A stretch of DNA of 62,927 nucleotides, filler included, from Collodictyon triciliatum (lineage: Eukaryota): the NCBI GenBank assembly GCA_043381765.1. It is 7 parts of 6 records of this genome, joined end to end, with 100 filler letters (N's around TTAATTAATTAA, not from the genome) between each part and the next. Parts side by side here need not be neighbours in the genome. Positions count along the whole stretch, not along the records: positions 40,625 to 54,052 come from JBHJMP010001987.1; 6 more parts are not named here. One strand, 5' to 3'. The position numbers were made by a program, and so were the translations under genes. The first letter of the stretch is position 1, and every line of letters begins with the position of its first letter. Below the pieces are notes generated by a model, which did not search any database, was not told the DNA's origin, and worked only from the letters and a program-made list of their open reading frames with translations. Below, piece after piece: positions 11,264 through 62,204 of this stretch.

Positions 11264-12489
11264 ATGAAGTCCAAAATCTCTGCCGACACATCCTCCGAGG
11301 CAGCTTGCGGCAAACGCTCGGTGAAGCCCCGACACGCCCTGCACGGTATTGCAAAAACAAAAAACAAAAAACAAAAAACAAAAAACAAAAAACAAAAAAC
11401 AAAAAACAAAAAACAAAAAACAAAAAACAAAAANAAAAACAAAAAACAAAAAACAAAAAACAAAAAACAAAAAACAAAAAAACAAAAAACAAAAAACAAA
11501 AAACAAAAAACAAAAAACAAAAAACAAAAAACATAAAGGAGTACACTTGACCACGAATACCACTTCATTAATTGGACGCTAAAAAACGCCTCGCCATCAT
11601 GAACGCACCAGGTATCCCATGGTCAGAAGAGGAGCACCAGCGCTTCCTACTGGGACTGCGGCACTACGGCCGAGGTGAATGGCGCCTCATCGCAAAGCAC
11701 TACATAAAGACTCGCAGCCCAGGCCAGGTCGCCAGTCACGCACAAAAGTACTTCAAGCGCATCGAGCCCTGTGCAGACCCTGACGCGCTGGCCAAACGCA
11801 GATGGTCTATCCACGACATGGTTGGTTGCTGCCATTCACCTGTCATCCCCCTGTACTCAGCAACCTGTCATCCCTCGCTACTCAGCAACCTGTCATCCCT
11901 CGCTACTCAGCAACCTGTCACTCAGCAACCTGCCAACCATTGCACACAGGAACTGCGAACCGCCTCCGGCCTGCAAGCAGAGAGTCCAGCCTGCTGGCCC
12001 GTCCTATCGCGTCCGCGAGATGAGACCGACATTCGCAACGCAACGGCCACCGCAGCCATGGCGATGGCGGCCCTGAACGACGAGTCATTTGCCGGGCCCA
12101 AAGCAAAGAATGCACGGGTCGCACAGCGAGAGAATCGGTTGCCTTCGTCCAAATCCCCTCCGTCTGCGTCGCCCGCACTTTCGTCTTCGTCTTTATCCTC
12201 GTCTTCATCTTCATCTTCATCGCCATCTTTGTCCGCCTCTGCAACAGCAACAGACGCGCAGACGCACAGCAGCAGCCCGGGCGATGCAGCCGCGTCAGAG
12301 GAATGGATGCGCGCTCTGCCCTCCTTCTGCGTCCGCACTCCCGCACACACGTACTCGTTTGTCCTGCCCGCCCCAAACATCCCCGCCCACTCGGCAGCTG
12401 ACACGCCGTCGCCCTCCCATACGCCGACCCTCACGTCAGGACTCTCGCCATTCCCCGTCTCTCTGCCCCTGCAAAGGCCTGCGCACTGA
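11264..12489 (+). CDS. SHAQKYF-class single-repeat Myb transcription factor
   Basis: Exon 11264-11345 joins 11612 in phase 1: GIPWSEEEHQRFLLGLRHYGRGEWRLIAKHYIKTRSPGQVASHAQKYF..RRWSIHDM, then a Ser/Pro-rich tail. Probable second, in-frame intron at 11821-11949. Confidence 0.92.
11353..11533. repeat. (AAAAAAC/AAAAAC)n tract in Myb intron 1
   Basis: Direct observation. Confidence 0.95.
11856..11934 (+). repeat. 25-nt minisatellite CTCAGCAACCTGTCATCCCTCGCTA (2 full + 2 partial copies)
   Basis: Copies start at 11856, 11881, 11906 and 11921. Confidence 0.9.
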
Positions 12490-13546: not shown

Positions 13547-13747
13547 AAAAACAATAAAAAACAATAAAAACAATAAAAAACAATAAAAAACAATAAAAAA
13601 CAATAAAAAACAATAAAAAACAATAAAAAACAATAAAAAACAATAAAAAAAAACAATAAAAAACAATAAAAAACAATAAAAAACAATAAAAAAAACAATA
13701 AAAAAAAACAATAAAAACAATAAAAAAACTATGAGAAGGGCACAGCC

Positions 13748-16700
13748 ATGGCCACCCGTCGCCCAGCCCCGCCACAGTCACAGTCACAGTCGCCTTCGCC
13801 TTCGCCTTCGCCTTTGCCTTCGCCTTCGGCCAATCAGAATCCACGCCCGATCGCCACCGCACCGCCGCAGACTCAGCGCGCAGCAGCGACGCCAGCCACG
13901 CCTTTGAAAGGAACGTCGCAGTCTGCGCCGAACACGCCGCTCCAAACAGCAGACCATTCGGGCTTCTACGACTCCATCAAGGCGCTCGGCCGTGGCGCTT
14001 TCGGCGAGGTTTTTCTTGTCAAGGAGAAGAAGTCCGGGAAGCTCTATGTCATCAAGAAGGTCAACCTCGAGATTCTCCGACCGAAGGAGCGCGTTCTGGC
14101 TGAGGCCGAGGTCTCCTTTCATTCTCATTCTCATTCTCATTCTCATTCTCATTTTATTCTCATTTTCATTCTCATTTTCATTCTCATTCTCATTCTCATT
14201 CTCATTTTCATTTTCATTTTCATTCTCATTCTCATTTTATTCTTTATTCTTTATTCTTTATTCACTTAATCCTTCATTCTCCAACGGCGCCATGTTTCAT
14301 GGGACTGTCTAATCACTGCACCGATTTCCTATGTTCCGTTTCAACGAATCACTCAATCGTTCCCATCGGTTAGGTCGAAATCCTCTCTTCCATGAAGCAC
14401 CACCCGCACATAGTGGCGCACAAGGAGAGTTATATCGACAGAACAAATAACTTATGTCTTGTTTTGCAATATTGCGATGGTGGCGATCTTGCTCAGGCCA
14501 TCAACCGTGCCAAACAGAATGAGACAAACTTCGCGGAAGAAGTAACAAATCCTTTATGAACTCACTTTATTTTTTAACGACATAATTGCGATTGTTTTTG
14601 ACGGCTCGTGTTGCTTCTTCTTTTTGGGAAAATAACTTATGAATTTTTTTAGACCAAAGCCGACGTCTTTATTTTGCTTGATTTTTTTTTTAAAAAAAAA
14701 TTTCAAATATGCAGCAAGTTGTCAATTGGATATGTCAACTGGCGTCTGCTCTTTCATATATTCATGCCAACCACATTGTTCATCGTGATTTAAAGACGTC
14801 AAATATCTTTCTCACAAAGAAGGATATCATCAAGCTAGGTGGTCTTTCAGTTATCTTAGTATTGATTAATGTCTCTATGTCGCAGTATCGAAGTCCATAG
14901 CTCAAAAACGATGGAAGTGGGTAATTATGCCACATTTTTTTCTTATCTTAATTATTTGTAGGGGATTTCGGGATATCCAAGATTCTAGAAAGCACGACTG
15001 ACCTAGCAATGACAGTGAGATTCAGACTTTAAAAATATCATCAAATGATCAAATGGTATAAATTGAAGATTTCATATATTTAGATGGTCGGCACCCCCTA
15101 TTACATGAGTCCAGAAGTTTGCCAAAACCAACCGTATGTTCACACCTTGTTATGCCTTTGTATAAATCATATTTTATAACCACCCTCCTTCATTTCTTTA
15201 ATAATTACTTGTGCAGGTATAATCAAAAATCTGATGTGTGGGCTCTTGGGTGTTGTATGTACGAAGTATGCACTCTCCAGCGAGCATTCGGAGCAGATGT
15301 AAAGAAAAATAAAGAATATATATTTATATTTGCTACTGTCATCTATTTTTATTTTTATTTTTTCGATAGCCTTCTTCTGAATGCTTTGATATTCATGAAT
15401 TTAGAGTTTGATGGGCCTTGTCTTCAAGATTGTCAAGGAGCAGCATCCTCCGATTCCAACCCGATATAGCGCTCAGCTTCGTGAGGTTTGTATTGGTGTT
15501 CACTTGGCTAAATTTTGTGCACTTGTAAAAACAACCGAGAAAAATAATCATATTTTCAAATGTCTCTTCGTAACAAATTATGACCATTTCCAGCTCATCG
15601 GCTCTATGATGGCAAAAAACCCACGGGAGCGCCCCTCAACAGAACAGATATTTCAATTACCCTATGTGAAGCAACATATGACCACGTTTCTTTTGGAAAC
15701 CCAGTGAGTCATGTCTTTTTTTTTTCTTCCATTTCTTTTTGTAATTCATTTGACATCATACATTCTTGTAACTTACATCGTAAATATACAAACCATGTAA
15801 AAACTTATATCACATTGCCGTTCATACAATTACTCCAACGACAAATTTTATCGCAAGATTCTTCGACTCGAAGGTCATCCCATCAAACCCGACTCCACAA
15901 TCTCATGTGCCAGGCAGTTCGATTCCTACTCCGGGAACAGGACATGGGCACAAGGATGTTTCAGTAATGACCTATATGCTACCATATTTAATGTTTTGGT
16001 TTCTATATTTATCACAACATCTTGGGAATCATACCCACATCTTACTATGATGAACATGTATCTCATGTTATGAATGACAGTTTGCACCAAATCAATTTTT
16101 TTTTTTCACGCCAAGGTTTACATGATGTCACAAATCTATAGGACTATTGCTTGCTTCATCATCTTGTATTTAAATGATATTTAATCATCAGAAAACTGAA
16201 CCAAAGGCAACCGCTGGGAATGTCCGACAGACAACACTCGAGCAAAAAAAAGGAATCCCAGAAAGGGTATAATCCGATTAACAATAAGTGACAAAGAAAT
16301 ATGACCCAATAACCGATATTAAAGCAGCTATATGCTCTTTGTATCATACAGAAACAGCCCAATCCTTCTTCCATTCCAACTCCAGTTCATGTTGTCGTTC
16401 AAACTCAAGTAGCAATCAACATTTCAACGCATATATAATTTTTTTTTTGCTACACCACGTTCATAGTATTTCGTTCCTATCAATTACCAGTAGTTTTTAT
16501 TCATGTTTTTTTTTTCCCATTACTAATTGTATTTAAACAGCCCTTGAAGGTCATGCCTCAAGCAAAACTTGTGGAAAGCAATAAAGCAACGCCAACTGGT
16601 GGCCTGAACGCACAAAGTAAAGGCCACAAAACCCGCTTCGACGATAACTCTGGCGATGAGGACAGTTCTTCTGTAGAAGAGTCCATCGAATTTGAAGGCT

Positions 16701-24591: not shown

Positions 24592-26984
24592 ATGGAGGAA
24601 AACTCGGGCCTCTCTCTAAAAAGCATTGTCTTTGGTAGGTAATCCAAATATTAATTAATCAAATGCCCTTCTAACAATTTCTCTTGCAGTTTGTATTATG
24701 ATGAGCCAACTCTTGTCCACTGCATGCCAAGCTTCCTCGATTTATACTTCTGGAGAGGGGCACCTTAATCAAGTCCGAGCTGTATCCATTACCCCCGATG
24801 GCACAAAAATCGTATCGGGAAGTGATGACAGAACTATAAAAATCTGGAATCTTTCTGATGGAGCTTTAATTCGAACTATAAATGGTCATACAAATTTGAT
24901 TTGGAGTGTCACAGCTACCCCAGATGGCTCGAAAATTATCTCTGGGGCTGCTGATGTTACGATTAAAATCTGGAATCTATCTGACGGAGCTTTGATTCGC
25001 ACATTGTCTGGTCATGCTGATACAATTTACTGTGTTTCTGTGACTCCTAACGAATTAATGTTAGTCTCTGGAAGTGCTGACACAACTATTAAAATTTGGA
25101 ATCTCGCCAATGGCTCTCTTATTCGCACGTTAAATGGGCATACAAACTTTGTACGTAGTGTTGCTATTACTCCTGACAGCCTAAAAATTGTATCGGGAAG
25201 CTCAGATAAAACTATCAAAATATGGAATCTTTCCGATGGAACCTTAATTAACACACTGTTTGGACATACCAGTAATGTGTGGAGTGTCAGTATTGCTCCA
25301 AATGGTTTAACAGTAGTATCTGGAAGTCAAGATAATTCAATCAAAATTTGGAGTCTTTCTGATGCAGTTTTGATTCGTACATTAATTGGTCATACAAATA
25401 CTGTTTTCAGTGTTTCTGTTACCCATGATAGCTCAAAAATCGTTTCTGGAAGTTGGGATAAAACAATCAACGTATGGAATATTTCGGATGGAAATCTAAT
25501 TCGCTCATTAATCGGACACCTTTCAGGTATTTTCAATGTTCACGTATCTAATTATAGCCTAGAATCTGTTTCTGTGGGCCATGACCGGACTGTGCGACTC
25601 TGGAATCTCTCTGACGGAAGCCCAATATACTCGAAAGGCTCGAGAGTAACTTCCATCGTGACATCCTCTGCCAAATCGATATTTATTACAGGGCATTCAG
25701 ACAACATCATCAGATTTTGGAGTTTGTCAAATGGAAATTTCGTTCGTTCGATGGCTATTCATTCTGATATTGTAAATGTATTGATACTCATTGCTGATAA
25801 CTCTAAAGTCATATCTGGAAGTTCAGATAAAACAATCAAGTTATGGAATGTCGATGATGGTTCTTTGATTCAATCATTTCAAGTCCATACGGAATCGGTG
25901 AACTGCGTCGCCATTACAAATAATGAAAAGATTCTAGTTTCTGGTAGCAGCGATAAAACCATCAAAATTACAAGAATGTCTGACGGAAATATAATTCGCA
26001 TATTAAATGGACACACTGAAATAATCACAAGTGTAGCTTTAACTCCTGATGGCTCAAAAATTGTTTCTGGAAGTTCCGATAAAACCATCAAAGTCTGGAA
26101 TTTTAATGACGGAACATTGGTACAAAATATAAATTTTCATACTGATGCAGTTAACTCTATTTCAATTACACCGGATGGAGCAAAAATTGTCTCTGCAAGC
26201 AGCGATAAAACAATCAAAATTACGAGCATTTTGGATGGAAGTTTAATTCACACTCTTAATGGGCACACAGGAATAATCAAAAGTGTTTCGATATCTCCGG
26301 ATGGTTCCAAGATTATTTCTGGAAGTAGTGACAGTACAATTAGAATTTGGAGCCAATCAAGTGGAATAACAATTAATATCATGAATGAACATGGAATTAC
26401 GATTAATGGAATATCAGTTCTCTCAGATGGCTCAAAATTTTTGTCAGGAAGCGACGATACAACAATGAAGATGTGGTATTTTCCTGATTTCAGCTTGACT
26501 TTGACGGTTTCAGGGCACAGCAGCTCAGTCAATAGTGTTGCTTTCAGCCCTGGTAAAACTAAAATTGTGTCTGGAAGTAGCGACAACACAATTAAAATTT
26601 GGAATTATGCTGACGGTTCTCTATCGCTTTCGATAAATGCCCATAAAAATTCTGTCAATAGTATTATTATTTCGGCTGATGAAACAAAATTCGTGTCAGG
26701 AAGCAGTGATAGCACCGTAATAATGTGGAATTTTTCGGATGGTGCTCAATTAAAAACATTTATCGGACATACCGCTGCTGTTCGAAGCGTTGCAATATCA
26801 TCAGATAATTCTGTGATTGTATCAGGAAGTGATGACATGACTATAAATATTTGGAAAGTTTCAGATGGAATTTTAATTCGCAACTTATCTGGGCATACGA
26901 AAGGAATAAATTCTGTTTTTATCACGCCTGATGAAACAAAAATTATTTCAGGCAGTGCTGATTTTTCCATAAAGATATGGAATT
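24592..26984 (+). CDS. Signal-peptide-bearing protein with at least 18 WD40 repeats; truncated by contig end
   Basis: Exon 24592-24634, 55-nt intron (GTAGGT..CTAAC..GCAG), then an open exon from 24690. Leader MEENSGLSLKSIVFVCIMMSQLLSTACQA precedes ~42-aa repeats GHxxxVxSVxITPDGSKIVSGSxDxTIKIWNLSDG. Confidence 0.9.
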
Positions 26985-27298
26985 NNNNNNNNNNNNNNNN
27001 NNNNNNNNNNNNNNNNNNNNNNNNNNNNTTAATTAATTAANNNNNNNNNNNNNNNNNNNNNNNNNNNNNNNNNNNNNNNNNNNNTTTTTCTCTTTTTTCT
27101 CTTTTTTCTCTTTTTTCTCTTTTTTCTCTTTTTTCTCTCTTTCTCTCTTTCTCTCTTTCTCTTTCTCTCTTTCTCTTTTTTCTTTCCTCTTTTTTCTTTC
27201 CTCTTTTTTCTTTCCTCTTTTTTTCTCTTTTTCCCTTTTCTTCTAATATCTTTCTCTTCCTTTCCTTATTCTTTTTATATCTACAATCGTTTCCCCAG

Positions 27299-28077
27299 AT
27301 GCTTAGAAGATGCATCATTAATGTCAGCGTTCGAGGACTTTAAGGATTTGAAGATACTATGCCAAACGAAGGTCTACAACGAGCGAGTATTGCTGGTATC
27401 CAAGTGCCACGGGATTGTGAAGGATTTGGTTAGTCATTCTATTCTGTGTTAAAAGACTGTCATTTGAGTGTGATACCACTCGACAGCTTATTGGCTTAAT
27501 ATCTATATTTTTGAAGTCCAGAGTGAAAAATAATTCCCTCCGATGCAACATCACTGGTTTCTTAAATTTGTCGCAATTTAATCATGATGTTGATTTGCAT
27601 GCTAATTTAATCATTACACCATCATCATTTATTACATTAATACGCAGGAGAGATTATTGGAAAAGATGATGCTTGTTTATTCAAACATACAAAAGTACGA
27701 AAAAGGGCTTGATTCACCCATTCCATTCCAGACAGCACCTGTATCCACGTTCTGTACGTAATTGTACTCGCATACACATAAAAATGGCATCGCAAAACGC
27801 GTAGATTGAAGCACCTATTTAAAGTTTTAAAACTGTATGTTTGCCTCTAGTGAACTGGTGTGAACAGATCCGCTCCATGCATGCTAAAGAGCTGGAGGCG
27901 GTTCAAGCCATTCTTGACAAGGTTCTTACAAGTTCGGACAGAGCAGATTCGGTATACTTCCTCACGATGCTGCAGATGGAGCCGCACATAGACACCACTT
28001 TAATCCATCAAATATCATGCTTTGCCGCGTCAGAAACGAATTTCCTCATACCCACAATCTCGAAACCGCAATCTTAG
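27299..28077 (+). CDS. CINP-like (CDK2-interacting protein family) 3' exons
   Basis: Three phase-compatible exons give PIPFQTAPVSTFLNWCEQIRSMHAKELEAVQAIL..VYFLTMLQMEPHID, resembling the CINP tail (PLFHTWPTTHF..MYRKELLLK..SYLSMWLHQPYVE). Confidence 0.55.
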
Positions 28078-49124: not shown

Positions 49125-52100
49125 ATGAGGTTGAAATCAAAGTCTTTTGCAGATATCTTGTTTTTGGGTGTGTTTTTAATTGGAATTATTTTATGGATTT
49201 TTGATTGAATTAATTGAAACCGAACCCATAGGATTATAAGGAACATATATTTAGGATTGATACTCCACTGCCAAGTGTGCCTTGTTGAGGGACAAAATGA
49301 ATTGATTCGCACACTCAATGCTCATACCGATGGTGTTTACAGTGCTACTATTACTCCTGATGGCTCAAAAATTGTATCTGGAGGTTCTTTTATTGATCCA
49401 AGTATCAAAATTTGGAATCTTTCTGATGGAAATTTGATTCGCACGCTGACTGGTCATGTCAGTTATGTTATGAGTCTTGCTGTTACTCCTGATGGCTCAA
49501 AAATTGTTTCTGGAAGCGATTTATCAGATGGCACAATCAAAATTTGGTATCTTTCTGATGGAGCTTTGGTTCATAAATTAACTGGTCAAATTAATTATAT
49601 TGTTTACCGTGTTGTTGTTACTCTTGATGGTTTAAAAATTGTTTCTGGAAGCCGGGATAATACGATCAACATTTGGAGTCTTTCTGATGGAGCTTTGATT
49701 CGCACATTGAATGTTCATACTAATTCTATTATCAGTGTTAGTGTTACCCCTGATGGTTCAAAAATTGTTTCTGGAAGTTATGATAGTACAATCAAAATTT
49801 GGGATGCTCCTGAATTAATTTGTTCTGCTGGTCATTTTTTTTATTTAGGTTCAAAACCTTGTCAATTATGCCTATCTGGAAGCTATAGTGCTGGAGGAGC
49901 TTCATATCGTTCATTATGCGAAGCTGGCTCATACAATCCGTCCACTGGTCAAGCTGCCTGTATTTTATGCGCAGCTGGCACATACAATCCATCGGCTGGC
50001 TCTACAATTGATAGTGACTGTCTTTTATGCGCAGCTGGCACATACAATCCATCGACTGGCTCTACAAGCGTTAGTGCATGTCTTTCATGTGCAGCTGGAA
50101 CATATAACCCATCAACTGGTCAGAGTTTATGCATCTTTTGCGAAGAAGGATAGTTCAACAACAAAACAGTCAAGCATCATGCCTTAATTGTGAACATGGA
50201 ACATATACTGATATACGTGGTCAGACATCATGTTTTGATTGCCCATTAGGTTTTTACAATAAAAAAACAGGAAAATCATTTTGCACCCCTTGCAGCCCAG
50301 GGACATATTCAAACTCTACTAAAGCAACATTTTGCTATGAGCGCCCAGCTGGTTCTTATAATCCGAATGTTGCATCCAACGGTATAAGCAGTTGTCAGCT
50401 GTGTCCACCAGGAAAATTTTCAACAAAAACTGGTGAATCAACATGTTAACTTTGTAAATCTGGTTCGTACAACCCATACCTTGGTCAGACTGGGTGCATT
50501 AATTGTACTGATGGAACATACAATCCACGATTTGGCTCCAGTTTGAATTCTTCATGCATTCAATGCCCGAAAGGTACTTATGGAAATGAGCAAAGAGATG
50601 AGTGCTTTTTGTGTCCAGCTGGTACATTCAACAATAAAACTGGTTCATATGATGAATCATCATGTGTTTCATGTACAAATGGAAGCTACAGCCCAGAAAG
50701 AAGCTCATCATGCAGCCTATGCTTATCAGGATTCTATCAAAAAGAAGGCATCACAAAAGACTCAGAATCATGCTACCCCTGTCCAAAAGGCACACACAAC
50801 TCAAAGTCCGGCTCATACGGAAATAAATTGTGTGTTGAATGCTCACAAGGTACTTGGAATAATATTGATGGTCAAGCATTATGCACAGCATGCCCAGCTG
50901 GAACATTCAACAATAAAACTGGTTCATTCAACGAATCATCGTGTATTGAATGTCCAAAAGGGAGCTACAGCTCGGAAAGAAGCTCATCATGCAATTCTTG
51001 CCCTACACGCTCAACAACGAACAAAGAAGGCTCTCAATCAATAGGTCAGTGCGGATGCATTTATTCTTATGTATCATTCAATGACATGTGCACATGCCCT
51101 CCAGGACAGTTTGAGGATGGCAATAAATGTGTTCCATGCAGAGTCGGCTCGTACAAATCAACAAATGACACAAATTTCTGCTCTCCATGTGGCGATAAAT
51201 TTACCACAAAAAATAATGGCTCGATGAACTCAACTGATTGTGTCTGTAGTAATGGGTTTGAATTGAGAAACTTCACTTGTGAGTGCAAACCTGGATGGTA
51301 TGAAAAGCAGAAAAGCTGCTATGAATGTCCACTGAGTATTTATAACGAAAATCATGGACTAAGCTTTTGTAGAGATTGCCCAATAAACTCATATACGAAT
51401 ATGACTGCTTCAGCTTCAATATCAGATTGCAAGTGCCTTCCATATACATATCTCGACTCAAAGACCAAGCAATCCAAAGATTGTCCAACAGGCTTTATTT
51501 GTGATGGAAGCAGTCAGCCGAGTGTCGCACCTGGATACTGGCAAGCTCCTACATCAAATGGAGAATACATCGCTTACAAATGTTTGAATGAAAATGCTTG
51601 CAATGGAGGGAATAACACATGTGCTGAAGGTTATACAGGAGCTCTGTGCAGTGTTTGTGAACAGGGTTTCGGTAAAACTGGCGTTAATTGCACAAGATGT
51701 CCCAACCAAGGAACGAGCGGGGTTTTAGTATTCCTCAGTATTGCAGTACCTCTGCTATTTGTCTTGTTCATGATAGAGCAATCAAGACAACCAAAGACGG
51801 CAAAAATTCAGATCCTAAAAACACTTGCATCTCATTTTCAAATTCTATCATATCTGGCAAACTTTGATGTCGACTGGAGTTACACTATAATCTCAATCAT
51901 GAAAATTCCAGCCGTATTTTCATTTTCATTATCAATAGACACATATCCTATGGAATGCAGATTTGAAATGACAATCTATGATAAAGCTCTGTATTCGATG
52001 ATAACACCTTTGATTCTGATAGGAGTAGTTCTTTTTATAGTCACATCCAAAACAGTATGGAAATTAAAAACCAATCAAATGAATAGCAGGGATGTTACAT

Positions 52101-52912
52101 TTTTCAAAATCAATCAAGAATTTATTTTTTCCATGCTAGTCATGCTGTTTTTTGTTCATCCCACGATTATGTCGTCAATATCAAATATCCTACGTTGCGA
52201 GGGGTTTGGTGATGGAAGTTACTTGAAGGCTGACATGTCCATAATGTGTGATGATGCAAGTTATATGACTTGGAAAAACATATCTCTCGTTTATGTAGTT
52301 CTGTATTGCTTTGGTGGGCCTTTTATTCTGGCTGCATACATGTTTTACAAAAGGTCCTCATTGATTAATCCAGCTTCAAACACTTACAACTTGCTCCGAT
52401 TTTTGGTCGACGGGTACACGGAAGAGTGCTTTTACTGGGAAATCGTGACTATGGTTCAAAAGCTTCTAGTTGTTATGATAAGCATTTTCTTTTCATCAGC
52501 CTTGCAAATTTACTTTGGATTGTGGTTACTGTTATTGACAATCTCATCGTCCTTTTATTTCAAACCATTCAAGTCCAATGTGCTCAGGAAGTCACAACTT
52601 TACTCAATATCGGTCCTTTACTTTACGTTGATGACAAGCCTTCTGTTCAGATTTACAGACCTTAGTATATTTTCCGAATATATTCTTGTGGCACTAGTTG
52701 TTTTGTTGAACGGAATGATTGCAGCTGCCTCTTTACTGAAAGCTGGACCTGCTGTGTTCATGTCTTTCATGGGGAAAATAGAGTCATTTGTAGAGCCAAT
52801 TTATGAATTCCTGTTTGAATCATCTGCTATCACTTACATGAAAAACAAATGGATTATTGCCAAAGAAGAACAGGAAATGAAGGATTTAAATGATTCTAAA
52901 GCCTCTATTTAA
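49125..52912 (+). pseudogene. Signal peptide + 4 WD40 + Cys-rich (GCC2/GCC3, ephrin-receptor-like) repeats + multipass membrane domain; disrupted
   Basis: Exon 49125-49167, intron, exon from 49255. Lesions: TAG 50151-50153, a 1-nt deletion at 50169-50170, TAA 50447-50449. CxxCxxGTYN repeats run across all three. About 9 hydrophobic segments with KxLxxHFQ, YLKADMSIMC, FLVDGY..FYWEIV..QK and KPF motifs. Confidence 0.85.
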
Positions 52913-52917
52913 ATAAT

Positions 52918-53024
52918 CACTCAAACTCACTCACTCACTCACTCACTCACTCACTCACTCACTCACTCACTCACTCACTCACTCACTCACTCACTCACTC
53001 ACTCACTCACTCACTCACTCACTT
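52918..53024. repeat. (CACT)n microsatellite directly after the receptor-like gene stop
   Basis: Direct observation. Confidence 0.95.
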
Positions 53025-60656: not shown

Positions 60657-61481
60657 CCTTGTGCGCTGCTGTGTACACACCTAGGCATACTCAATGACAA
60701 TTCCATTTGCTTTTCTTCATTCGGGTCATACTCTGGTAATTACGCCAGGCGCAAACACGCTTCTTGTATCTCCTCTGTTTCAGCGCATTTTCGTCTGGAA
60801 AGAACAAGTCTAAATCAGCTGCTAGTTTTTCAGGCACTATCTAATAAACAGGAAAATAATTCGTGATGCACGCAACGTACGAGCGCCATCTCTTGTGATG
60901 GGTACTGGGTGTGCTTGATGAAGGGGAAATGAATAATATGGTCTACAGGAAGATGATTGGATTCATAATTCATGCGAAGCTAAAAAAAAAAAAAACATAT
61001 ATGAACCAATCAATGGAAAGAGAAAGTAAAACTAGCAATTATCAGAGCTATGACAATGCAAACCAGATTACAGGACGTGGCTATGACTTTCTCTTTCTCT
61101 TTCTCTTTCTCTTTCTTTGATTTCTGTCGTTTATCATTCTGCATATAACTGTTCCTCCATCGTTCAGTATTTCGCAAATTCGAGATTACATATACGCGAC
61201 TTCGATTCAGTACCCTCCCAATATCTCTCTCGCATGTCCTGATGAAAATTCCTAGCATTTCATCGAAGGTCTCCAGGTATCACGGAAGAGAACCGATGCG
61301 ATGTAAAAAAAAAAAAAAAAACTCTTTATAGCAGTTGTTTTATTTATAAATAAAATATCATTAATTTTTTATGTACCTATANNNNNNNNNNNNNNNNNNN
61401 NNNNNNNNNNNNNNNNNNNNNNNNNTTAATTAATTAANNNNNNNNNNNNNNNNNNNNNNNNNNNNNNNNNNNNNNNNNNNN

Positions 61482-62204
61482 CAGACTTTGCTGTGGGCTG
61501 CCTGCTTTTGATGAGCGACTTTGGTGTGACGATGTTTCCTTCTTCATCCTTGACAACAACGGGCGGTGCAGATTGCTCGGAGGCAAACGACTTTGTGCTC
61601 ATGCGCACGCTTTTTGAGGCCATTCCAGTCACACGGGACGATGCGCTGAAAAATCGCAGCATATGGAATTGACAGAGGCCATGTTTATATTTAAATGCAA
61701 GTGGCGTGTATAATGCATTCATGTATGTATGTATGTATGTATGTATGTATGTATGTATGTATGTATGTATGTATGTATGTATGTATGTATGTATGTATGT
61801 ATGTATGTATGTATGTATGTATGTATGTATGTATGTATAATATAGTAGTATGTGTATGTATAGTATATGTATGTATGTATGTATGTATGTAGTATGGTAG
61901 TATGTAGTTATGTATGTATGTATGTATGTATGTAGTATATATGTATGTATTGTATGTTTGTATGGAGTATGTAGGTATGTATGTATGTATGTATTATCGT
62001 GTATGTATGTATGTATGTATGTATGTATGTATGTATGAATGAATGAATGAATAGATATATGAATGGATGAATCTCAGGCGTAAAACTTACGTAAACTTCG
62101 ACTGAGTCTTCAAAACATTCGGGTTGATGCGGCTCTTCTGTGAGCTCAATGAAGACGACATGCGGTCAGACTTCTCCATAGTTGTGCTTCTCAAATTCCA
62201 ATTT
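61482..62204 (-). CDS. Two N-terminal exons (62204-62091, 61645-61482), possibly axonemal dynein intermediate chain DNAI4/WDR78/IC138-like
   Basis: Phase-2 GT-AG join gives a Ser/Lys-rich leader then PVVVKDEEGNIVTPKSL, resembling the VxVxDxxGxDVTPxxL motif of WDR78. Single short motif only. Confidence 0.45.
61720..62050. repeat. Degenerating (TATG)n intronic microsatellite
   Basis: Direct observation. Confidence 0.95.

Follow-up and report, generated by a model that had tools for sequence, protein, structure and literature searches.

Does the gene at 49125-52912 (gene 1) of the freshwater protist Collodictyon triciliatum encode a surface receptor that carries WD40 repeats outside the cell, and is such an architecture new? 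An earlier note had proposed this, reading the gene as a signal peptide, HET-E-like WD40 repeats, a Cys-rich stalk and a multipass membrane domain. We analyzed gene 1 within its window, i.e., the whole stretch of 62,927 nt of assembly GCA_043381765.1 along which all positions are counted (Table 1). Our results indicate that gene 1 is probably a genuine in-frame fusion of a leader-WD40 part with a protist modular surface-protein part, and that this copy has most likely become a pseudogene very recently or contains local assembly errors.

Table 1. Features of gene 1 and of the second WD40 gene (gene 2) in the window
Feature	Position	Strand	Description
Exon 1 of gene 1	49125..49167	+	43 nt; ATG at 49125, first 14 codons and one leader base (MRLKSKSFADILFLG)
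Intron 1 of gene 1	49168..49254	+	87 nt, GT (at 49168)..AG (ending at 49254), phase 1, AT-rich; splice inferred from sequence
Leader remainder	49255..49292	+	exon 2 starts at 49255; signal-peptide-like (..LILHCQVCLVEG); cleavage likely after VEG
Four WD40 repeats	49302..49820	+	42-44 codons each; Pfam PF00400 E 5.1e-36, 4 stretches
WD40 units 1-4	~49302-49433, 49434-49565, 49566-49694, 49695-49820	+	approximate unit bounds
Stalk part A	49821..50150	+	Ephrin_rec_like units (E 6.6e-14), frame 0, contiguous with WD40; unit at 49908 without first Cys
Candidate cryptic intron	50070..50488	+	GTTAGT..CAG, 419 nt; coding-like repeat sequence
Lesion 1	50151..50153	+	in-frame TAG
Lesion 2	50166..50172 (about 50170)	+	frame 0 to frame 2; a single missing base explains the shift
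Stalk part B	50168..50446	+	frame 2; Ephrin_rec_like E 4.3e-23; unit at 50333 without second Cys of CxxC (CYER)
Lesion 3	50447..50449	+	in-frame TAA
Stalk part C	50450..51577	+	Ephrin_rec_like E 7.3e-45; carries 13 of 14 N-x-S/T sequons
DUF7630 (PF24633)	51578..51700	+	small Cys-rich beta module adjoining the first membrane helix; E 1.8e-6, 28.4 bits, cutoff 27
Membrane domain	51707..52747	+	about nine helices; outside beta-hairpin loop with invariant Cys pair
Tail and stop	52748..52912	+	helical, inferred cytosolic; TAA at 52910-52912
Second WD40 gene (gene 2)	24592..27040	+	leader MEENSGLSLKSIVFVCIMMSQLLSTACQASS, 43-nt exon 1, 55-nt phase-1 intron, at least 17 WD40 units

The proposed domain order is encoded in one frame, the three lesions excepted, and the WD40-Cys junction lies where that frame is uninterrupted. 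Specifically, an open frame of 311 codons (49218-50153) covers the last part of the leader, the four WD40 repeats and the initial Cys units. Splicing of intron 1 gives a product that starts with MRLKSKSFADILFLGLILHCQVCLVEG followed by QNE, which matches the previous reading of the leader exactly. Exon 2 lacks an in-frame ATG ahead of the second WD40 repeat, and an upstream exon is therefore needed for initiation. The leader was called a signal peptide by hand rules only, on the basis of three K/R in the n-region, a best 12-residue hydropathy of 2.24 and small residues at −3 and −1. Beyond the WD40 repeats, the many Cys repeats and sequons noticed earlier were borne out by 18 CxxCxxGx[YFW] units, 69 Cys in 626 ectodomain residues and 14 N-x-S/T sequons, 13 of which fall within the 423 ectodomain residues nearest the membrane; Pfam recognizes Ephrin_rec_like (PF07699) in each of the three stalk pieces.

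All three lesions reported for this copy were recovered (a TAG, a 1-nt deletion and a TAA), and all lie within 299 bp. Two stops and a 1-nt deletion in so short an interval most likely reflect a very young pseudogene or local assembly errors, and this copy may be dead. At the deletion, the translation reads NNKT and then QASCLNC, where intact units elsewhere (at 50603 and 50882) have FNNKTGS... A ciliate-type reassignment of TAG and TAA was considered and rejected, given the frames of 793 and 820 codons without such codons, plus the frameshift.

A doubtful but serious alternative is that the gene is intact and encodes a working WD40-capped receptor, with the lesions arising from local assembly or consensus errors, strain polymorphism or spliced-out repeats. 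The clustering speaks for this, as three lesions confined to 299 of 3,698 coding bases have a P of about 0.019 under random placement, and so do the remaining 820 codons, which are open where a shuffled sequence would hold ~54 stops. Likewise, variation among the WD40 units is patterned rather than uniform, and in comparison with ~85-95% identical environmental contigs, 23 of the 40 differences listed are synonymous third-position changes (P = 0.0014 versus 1/3), with 104 further differences outside the list. Splicing could also rescue the frame, since within the scanned ranges just one in-phase GT..AG pair, 50070-50488, would remove all lesions and restore a regular repeat unit. However, as a candidate cryptic intron this stretch has a low prior probability, because it consists of repeat sequence of coding character (Pfam E 4.3e-23 for a segment within it) and does not resemble the AT-rich introns identified here. 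Moreover, two of the lesions are substitutions and the third is a deletion, a mixture that a single error mode would not usually produce, and a cysteine has been lost in each of two further Cys units (at 49908 and 50333). Pieces identical to gene 1 were found in the contigs of four metagenome runs, each from a different study; none of the contig pieces listed for these runs covers 50151-50153, ~50170 or 50447-50449 (83 further pieces lie outside the list). JGI metagenome contigs contained no match to an exact pattern placed over the frameshift site. The sequencing runs listed number 12, all DNA or guessed-DNA metagenomes with 5-9% of sampled words and no RNA run among them.

An assembly chimera, in which a WD40 gene and a Cys-rich/membrane gene were wrongly joined at about 49800-49830, is very improbable. 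The window is draft sequence with numerous N gaps, and many WD40-matching metagenome contigs diverge at 49798-49806, although these 85-95% matches are probably other WD40 genes. Against a chimera, there is no gap near the junction, the 311 codons through it contain no stop, and in run X2 a single contig links 49774 (WD40) with 50875 (Cys repeats), a weak hint at 85% likeness with 41 letters on the shorter side. As far as the sequence can tell, the in-frame WD40-to-stalk fusion is real.

On which side of the membrane would the WD40 part lie? A hydropathy scan found no membrane helix between the WD40 repeats and the disulfide-type repeats, so that the WD40 part must face the cell exterior or the lumen, provided that a protein is produced; with this proviso, the suggested display of the repeats on an external disulfide stalk holds. 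The least probable reading of all, that the WD40 part is cytosolic because the N-terminal hydrophobic stretch is no signal peptide or translation starts elsewhere, would suit canonical eukaryotic WD40 propellers, which are overwhelmingly cytosolic or nuclear, and the single sequon in the 190 residues of this part, but it is contradicted by the absence of a helix before 626 residues of 11% Cys repeats (extracellular modules, hence the same membrane side), by the lack of any other in-frame ATG upstream of repeat 2 and by the recurrence of the leader-exon structure in a second WD40 gene. Sequon density was dropped as a sign of secretion for WD40 parts, as it proved not distinctive: the values per 100 residues were 0.53 for gene 1 and 1.17 for gene 2, whereas among 236 homologues the median was 0.34 and the highest value 1.47.

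This second gene (gene 2) lies 22 kb from gene 1 along the window and matches it in exon 1 length (43 nt) and in intron phase; its frame is open for 793 codons and ends at an N gap. The matching leader exon in front of a WD40 array suggests that a local family of leader-bearing WD40 genes exists. The closest WD40 relatives of gene 1 include fungal NACHT-WD40, cyanobacterial STAND and Reticulomyxa NB-ARC proteins (≤53% identity), and some bacterial WD40 relatives open with signal-peptide-like leaders. Canonical, self-similar WD40 repeats of the STAND/NLR type are known to act as intracellular sensors. Word-indexed protein searches returned WD40/STAND matches only, at ≤53% identity for the WD40+Cys piece of gene 1 (among longer proteins) and at ≤46% for the gene-2 array, indicating that the organism's own proteome seems to be missing from the searched collection. 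In the ESM Atlas, the WD40+Cys piece likewise found WD40 clusters only (score 0.86).

We examined the four repeats of gene 1 at the DNA level, where they had been described as near-identical. The quoted 25-mer does recur, four times in gene 1 (with 0, 0, 3 and 2 mismatches) and once in gene 2 (1 mismatch), against an expectation of zero such matches from 100 shuffles; for whole units, which share 73-75% nucleotide identity, the description was overstated. In the unit alignment, the SGSxDxT turn is longer by two inserted codons in units 1 and 2, and a single additional codon follows GQ in unit 3, so that 3 of the 4 units bear indels relative to the 42-codon register kept by gene-2 units. Pooled pN and pS were 0.269 and 0.233 in gene 1 (overall dN/dS 1.19) versus 0.366 and 0.714 in gene 2 (dN/dS 0.22). 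Judged by pS, the gene-1 repeats are the younger set; relaxed constraint would also produce a dN/dS of 1.19. Nonsynonymous change in gene 1 is concentrated in segment 10-20, after GH (pN 0.422 versus pS 0.137), whereas the scaffold segment 21-31 shows the reverse (pN 0.114 versus pS 0.273). The most variable codons, 12, 14, 30 and 32, form two pairs around the conserved V13 and D31 (n = 4 units).

The comparison with HET-E holds in one respect and fails in others. As published, the hypervariable codons of HET-E form the pairs 7/9 and 25/27, and internal DNA identity of its repeats reaches up to 100% (Paoletti et al. 2007). The geometry is shared by gene 1, whose variable pairs 12/14 and 30/32 likewise sit beside conserved residues, in the d-a loop and the b-c turn (n = 4 units); the unit identity of 73-75% and the absence of NACHT or NB-ARC are not HET-E-like. 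Specifically, Pfam found only WD40-type and Ephrin_rec_like domains in the N-terminal piece of gene 1, with no NACHT, NB-ARC or HET domain. The setting differs as well, since HET-E/HNWD repeats are cytosolic, whereas those of gene 1 follow a secretion-type leader and number only four.

Four blades alone cannot close a propeller. The single-chain model of the WD40 part, which has 3 Cys in 190 residues, reached a pLDDT of about 77-93 over residues 1-170, and the fold model joins two WD40 copies as a ring. The homodimer model scored 0.71 versus 0.01 for the best of 3 controls, with at least 95% contact agreement among runs, a partner pLDDT of at least 84 and a modelled interface of residues 2-20 of one copy against 139-171 of the other. 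This mark was reached by 21 of 30 solved one-chain pairs and by none of 23 solved single chains (17 of 29 and 0 of 30, respectively, for eukaryotes). The score may, however, stem from the model's memory of closed propellers.

For the remainder of the protein, the earlier count of about nine hydrophobic segments was reproduced, as both a hydropathy scan and an AlphaFold2 model (pLDDT 86.3, pTM 0.80) give about nine helices. In a phmmer search of 1.84 billion representatives, the membrane domain had 6,983 relatives at E ≤ 1e-3, 68 of them reaching E ≤ 1e-30, with full-length matches to the domain at the C-termini of long proteins. A word-indexed search with the membrane part among proteins of near length found none at E ≤ 1e-3, the family emerging in the exhaustive HMMER search, and a protein scan of JGI metagenome contigs with this part returned no relative. 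Rigifila ramosa EukProt transcripts P0002, P0003 and P0013 provide examples (family E 2e-62 to 1e-43, 30-35% identity). The family's invariant Cys pair corresponds to C227 and C244 of the 464-residue piece of gene 1, in which two Gly and one Trp are likewise present.

Seven top relatives were scanned for domains, revealing TIG in 5, RCC1 in 2, FG-GAP in 1, Ephrin_rec_like in 5 and DUF7630 in 4. Thus gene 1 and this protist family share the membrane domain, DUF7630 directly before it and Ephrin_rec_like upstream, but the scanned relatives carry N-terminal TIG, RCC1 or FG-GAP where gene 1 has WD40, and the frame of gene 1 is interrupted. On these domain matches, the stalk and membrane unit is not new, the family already including other beta-propeller ectodomains (RCC1 and FG-GAP). 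Of the proposed novelty, what stands is the cap: WD40 occurs in none of the 150 closest membrane-domain relatives, a stalk or membrane part in none of the 120 closest WD40 relatives, and the same order in intact form in neither set, so that the WD40 cap appears to be the unusual part of gene 1. Our literature searches found no published description of Ephrin_rec_like/DUF7630/multipass protist proteins and no paper on DUF7630 (PF24633), which is present in 12 of the 23 members of an alignment of the gene 1 piece with 22 relatives.

The description of the membrane unit as GPCR/TRP-like did not find support at the level of fold. About nine helices fit neither the six-helix pore-loop fold of TRP channels nor the seven-helix fold of GPCRs. 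Foldseek returned 0 matches to the PDB at E ≤ 1e-3 for the membrane-domain model, a PDB sequence-profile search gave nothing below E 0.16, and the best hit of VIA-align wide, Hrd1 (Z 8.3, rmsd 5.9, 195 aligned), is at noise level for helical bundles. The sole link is the Pfam family TRP (PF06011), which is matched by 5 of the 23 aligned members (best E 5.7e-8) but not by gene 1's own membrane domain at E ≤ 0.1. As the match runs through homologues, the link is indirect, and the membrane domain may be tied, remotely, to Pfam TRP of the fungal Pkd2/Flc type. Fission yeast Pkd2, Trp663 and Trp1322 are proteins that we take to be members of PF06011.

Known receptors of similar plan were compared with gene 1. 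Fission yeast Pkd2 is described as having a signal peptide, an extracellular domain, a modelled transmembrane domain of ~400 residues and nine helices, and a cytosolic tail (10.1101/2022.08.11.503631), and it is reported to be calcium-permeable and stretch-activated (PMC9727806). Gene 1 shares the plan of nine membrane helices behind an extracellular N-terminal domain (AlphaFold2 model); its ectodomain consists of WD40 and Cys repeats, in contrast to the Ig/ML-like lipid-binding domain of the yeast Pkd2 type. The cysteine repeat modular proteins (CRMPs) of Apicomplexa and ciliates are described as combining a signal peptide and adhesive modules at the N-terminus with an EGFR-like Cys-rich region and, at the C-terminus, several membrane helices (nine in Toxoplasma and Plasmodium); their N-terminus is out and their C-terminus in, and they are proposed to be contact sensors that trigger exocytosis (PMC9670195). 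The likeness is one of published domain plan only, and CRMP caps are MAR or Kringle where that of gene 1 is WD40. A plant precedent for an outside WD40-type propeller on a Cys-rich domain is the receptor kinase CRINKLY4, the ectodomain of which comprises an N-terminal WD40-type propeller followed by a TNFR-like cysteine-rich domain (10.1101/2020.08.10.245050). As described, however, the CRINKLY4 propeller is monomeric with seven blades, each pinned by a disulfide, whereas gene 1 has four canonical GH..WD blades without such disulfides, and the single membrane helix and kinase of CRINKLY4 contrast with a nine-helix domain and no kinase family in the Pfam scan of gene 1.

Under the in-frame fusion that we favor, the 3′ three quarters of gene 1 would derive from the very large protist family (Ephrin_rec_like, DUF7630, the domain of about nine helices and the cytosolic tail), and the 5′ quarter from the local leader-bearing WD40 family (43-nt leader exon, phase-1 intron and four repeats). 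Translation of gene 1 would yield an extracellular, glycosylated disulfide stalk topped by a four-bladed WD40 half-propeller. In the proposed mode of action, two such proteins could join head to tail to complete an eight-bladed ring, ligand would bind to the variable repeat positions of the top face, and the signal would pass inward by way of the nine-helix domain. A broader scenario, speculative and rather unlikely, is that a freshwater protist lineage moved canonical NLR-type WD40 sensors into the secretory pathway and, in gene 1, mounted a half-propeller on a Pkd2/CRMP-like nine-helix transducer; a ligand on the hypervariable top face would then govern whether two half-propellers pair as an eight-bladed ring and, through this, how the membrane domains pair or gate.

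The value of these findings is limited by the interrupted reading frame of the gene 1 copy. If true, the scenario would mean that NLR-style recognition has a counterpart outside the cell. With leader-bearing WD40 repeats present both in a long open array and on a receptor chassis, protists would be seen to redeploy an evolvable binding module extracellularly, and the large, unstudied Ephrin_rec_like/DUF7630/nine-helix family would gain a member with a ligand surface that can be read from its variable positions.

Gene 1, the receptor-like gene at 49125–52912, carries the leader MRLKSKSFADILFLGLILHCQVCLVEG, which is completed by exon 2 (starting at 49255). It resembles a cleavable signal peptide in its three basic residues, in its hydrophobic core, where the best 12-residue stretch has a hydropathy of 2.24, and in the small residues at positions −3 and −1. 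Exon 2 holds no in-frame ATG upstream of the second WD40 unit and, therefore, exon 1 is needed. After the leader, four WD40 units (Pfam E-value of 5.1e-36) run contiguously into Ephrin_rec_like cysteine repeats within one open frame (49218–50153). The final frame (820 codons, 50450 to the stop at 52912) adds Ephrin_rec_like units (E = 7.3e-45), then DUF7630 and, at the C-terminus, a hydrophobic domain. In total, there are 18 CxxCxxGx[YFW] units, 69 cysteines in 626 residues and 14 N-x-S/T sequons. This confirmed the domain order that the earlier note had read from the DNA: in the DNA, the fusion of WD40 repeats, stalk and membrane domain is genuine, and its product would carry the WD40 repeats extracellularly.

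In addition to gene 1, the window contains gene 2, a second leader-bearing WD40 gene, whose spliced, signal-peptide-like leader (MEENSGLSLKSIVFVCIMMSQLLSTACQASS) is followed by 17 or more WD40 units; the open frame spans 793 codons and ends in an N gap. The exon length and phase common to both genes speak for the spliced leader being a genuine feature of the family. Elsewhere in the window, neither a Cys-rich nor a membrane part was found. Gene 2 may encode a secreted multi-propeller WD40 protein. The window is eukaryotic and AT-rich, with plentiful microsatellites and N gaps; the numerous short N gaps mark it as a draft assembly. Its other intron-bearing genes include, judging by motifs, the putative ones listed in the table. 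Microsatellites and low-complexity tracts are unusually dense throughout (e.g., 1219–1629, 11400–11550, 14100–14270, 27041–27340, 29450–29600, 42450–42700 and 61426–62073), and a (CACT)n tract (52921–53023) lies directly 3′ of the gene 1 stop codon.

Features of genes 1 and 2 and of neighboring genes in the window
Feature	Position	Strand	Basis or detail
SHAQKYF-class Myb-like protein (putative)	11572–12489	+	motif
NEK-like protein kinase, intron-split (putative)	13724–15469	+	motif
Gene 2	24592–27040	+	ATG at 24592, 43-nt exon 1, 55-nt phase-1 intron
Glucosidase II alpha-like gene, multi-exon, own signal-peptide-like start (putative)	29220–34000	+	motif
Gene 1, exon 1	ATG at 49125, 43 nt	+	sequence
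Gene 1, intron 1 (GT..AG, 87 nt)	between exon 1 and 49255	+	sequence
Gene 1 lesion, TAG	50151–50153	+	frame cut
Gene 1 lesion, shift to frame 2, explained by one missing base	near 50170	+	frame cut
Gene 1 lesion, TAA	50447–50449	+	frame cut

The three lesions are confined to 299 of the 3698 coding bases (P ~0.019 under random placement). The remaining 820 codons are open (~54 stops in shuffles), and two Cys units each lack one cysteine. At the frameshift site, FNNKT is followed by QASCLNC; two intact units (50603 and 50882) have FNNKTGS instead. One in-phase GT..AG pair (50070–50488), if spliced, would remove the three lesions together and restore a regular unit, but this candidate intron is ordinary repeat coding sequence. 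This copy is most likely a young pseudogene or a local error state. Among the metagenome matches listed, no read, contig or RNA covered the lesion sites.

Four metagenome runs (X1–X4), from four studies labelled freshwater, freshwater, lake water and subsurface, contain pieces identical to the window as well as diverged ones. Specifically, contigs matched gene 1 with 100% identity at 49263–49515, 50240–50390, 50820–50972 and 50988–51246, and pieces with 85–95% identity span much of 50600–52735 (run X2). Therefore, the organism or close relatives inhabit such waters, and gene 1 has close paralogues or orthologues. Among 40 differences listed between gene 1 and the diverged pieces, synonymous third-position changes account for 23 (P = 0.0014; 104 further differences lie outside this list), so the family was under coding constraint until recently. 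One X2 contig runs from the final WD40 unit (49774) straight into a Cys repeat that lies 1100 nt further along (50875). This contig, whose shorter side measures 41 letters and whose likeness is 85%, may come from a relative with a shorter stalk and the same WD40-to-Cys-repeat order; alternatively, it may be an artefact of the repeats.

With the last 464 residues of gene 1 as query, exhaustive HMMER searching yielded 6983 relatives at E ≤ 1e-3, of which 1838 passed a threshold of 1e-10 and 68 one of 1e-30; most are 1000–6000 residues long and have the matching part at the C-terminus. Six of the ten top relatives looked up were Rigifila ramosa transcripts and four were NCBI/JGI, Logan or JGI records. 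Upstream of the membrane domain, Pfam analysis of seven top relatives revealed TIG (5/7), RCC1-type propellers (2/7), FG-GAP (1/7), Ephrin_rec_like (5/7) and DUF7630 (4/7). In alignment A1 (the gene 1 piece and 22 shorter relatives), DUF7630 matched 12 of the 23 members, Ephrin_rec_like 6 and TRP PF06011 5 (best, 5.7e-8), with DUF7630 the sole Pfam match of the gene 1 piece itself; ESM Atlas indicated the same families. The stalk and membrane domain are thus a known, very common design. Fungal Pkd2, Trp663 and Trp1322 are presumably PF06011 members.

The confident AlphaFold2 model of the membrane piece built with A1 (pLDDT 86.3, pTM 0.80) comprises a small beta module, ~9 membrane helices and a long C-terminal helix, with an invariant Cys pair on a beta-hairpin loop. 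Foldseek found no similar solved fold at E ≤ 1e-3, the best VIA-align Z (8.3, Hrd1) fell within the stated helical-bundle noise, and a PDB profile search returned nothing under E 0.16; the "GPCR/TRP-like" label given earlier to this unit is, therefore, unsupported by fold. By family, the nearest described relatives are the nine-helix fungal Pkd2/Trp663/Trp1322 (10.1101/2022.08.11.503631). By design, judged from the published domain plan (PMC9670195), the nearest would be the CRMPs, proposed contact sensors in Apicomplexa and ciliates.

A single-chain model showed beta blades for residues 1–170 of gene 1 (pLDDT ~77–93 per block) and low confidence for the Cys part without an alignment. In a homodimer model, two copies paired head to tail, scoring 0.71 versus 0.01 for the best of three controls (contact agreement between runs ≥95%, partner pLDDT ≥84), with a mark reached by 21 of 30 solved one-chain pairs versus 0 of 23 solved single chains (17/29 versus 0/30 for eukaryotes). 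The N-terminal strands (residues 2–20) pack against the partner's last blade (139–171), closing a predicted eight-bladed ring that may just be the model's memory of closed propellers.

The gene 2 WD40 units (mean pN 0.366, pS 0.714, pooled dN/dS 0.22) are old, diverged at synonymous sites and constrained; those of gene 1 (pS 0.233, pooled dN/dS 1.19) are much younger. Variation in gene 1 is uneven, with pN 0.422 versus pS 0.137 in the post-GH stretch and pN 0.114 versus pS 0.273 in the TPDGSKIVSGS scaffold. Conserved V13 and D31 are flanked by the four codons that vary most (12, 14, 30 and 32), the same pattern as the variable pairs 7/9 and 25/27 of HET-E reported by Paoletti et al. 2007. Indels relative to the 42-codon register in three of the four units count against function. 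The repeat pattern is compatible with diversifying selection, which is unproven because four units preclude a site test and surface loops are, to our knowledge, the most variable region in any WD40.

Neither WD40 query had a phmmer match (E ≤ 1e-3) among the 150 membrane-domain relatives listed, and neither the Cys-rich nor the membrane part had one (E ≤ 1e-2) among the 120 listed WD40 relatives. In ESM Atlas, the junction piece retrieved only WD40 clusters. The closest WD40 relatives (≤53% identity) were cyanobacterial STAND/TIR/NACHT, basidiomycete NACHT-WD40 and Reticulomyxa NB-ARC proteins. What sets gene 1 apart is its WD40 cap: the cap is new, the chassis beneath it very common. Propellers outside the cell have precedents: plant CRINKLY4 is described as bearing a WD40-type propeller atop a TNFR-like Cys-rich domain (10.1101/2020.08.10.245050). 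Several bacterial WD40 matches begin with signal-peptide-like leaders, and RCC1 and FG-GAP propellers already occur within the membrane-domain family. The earlier note's interpretation, a new receptor architecture, was partly supported: it held for the fusion and the predicted outward placement of the WD40 repeats, and fell short on the common chassis, the precedents and the interrupted copy. RCC1-type propellers are normally nuclear or cytosolic. Since the presumed ectodomains of two Rigifila ramosa relatives (P0003 and P0013) contain them, bringing "intracellular" propellers outside may be a general habit of this membrane-domain family.
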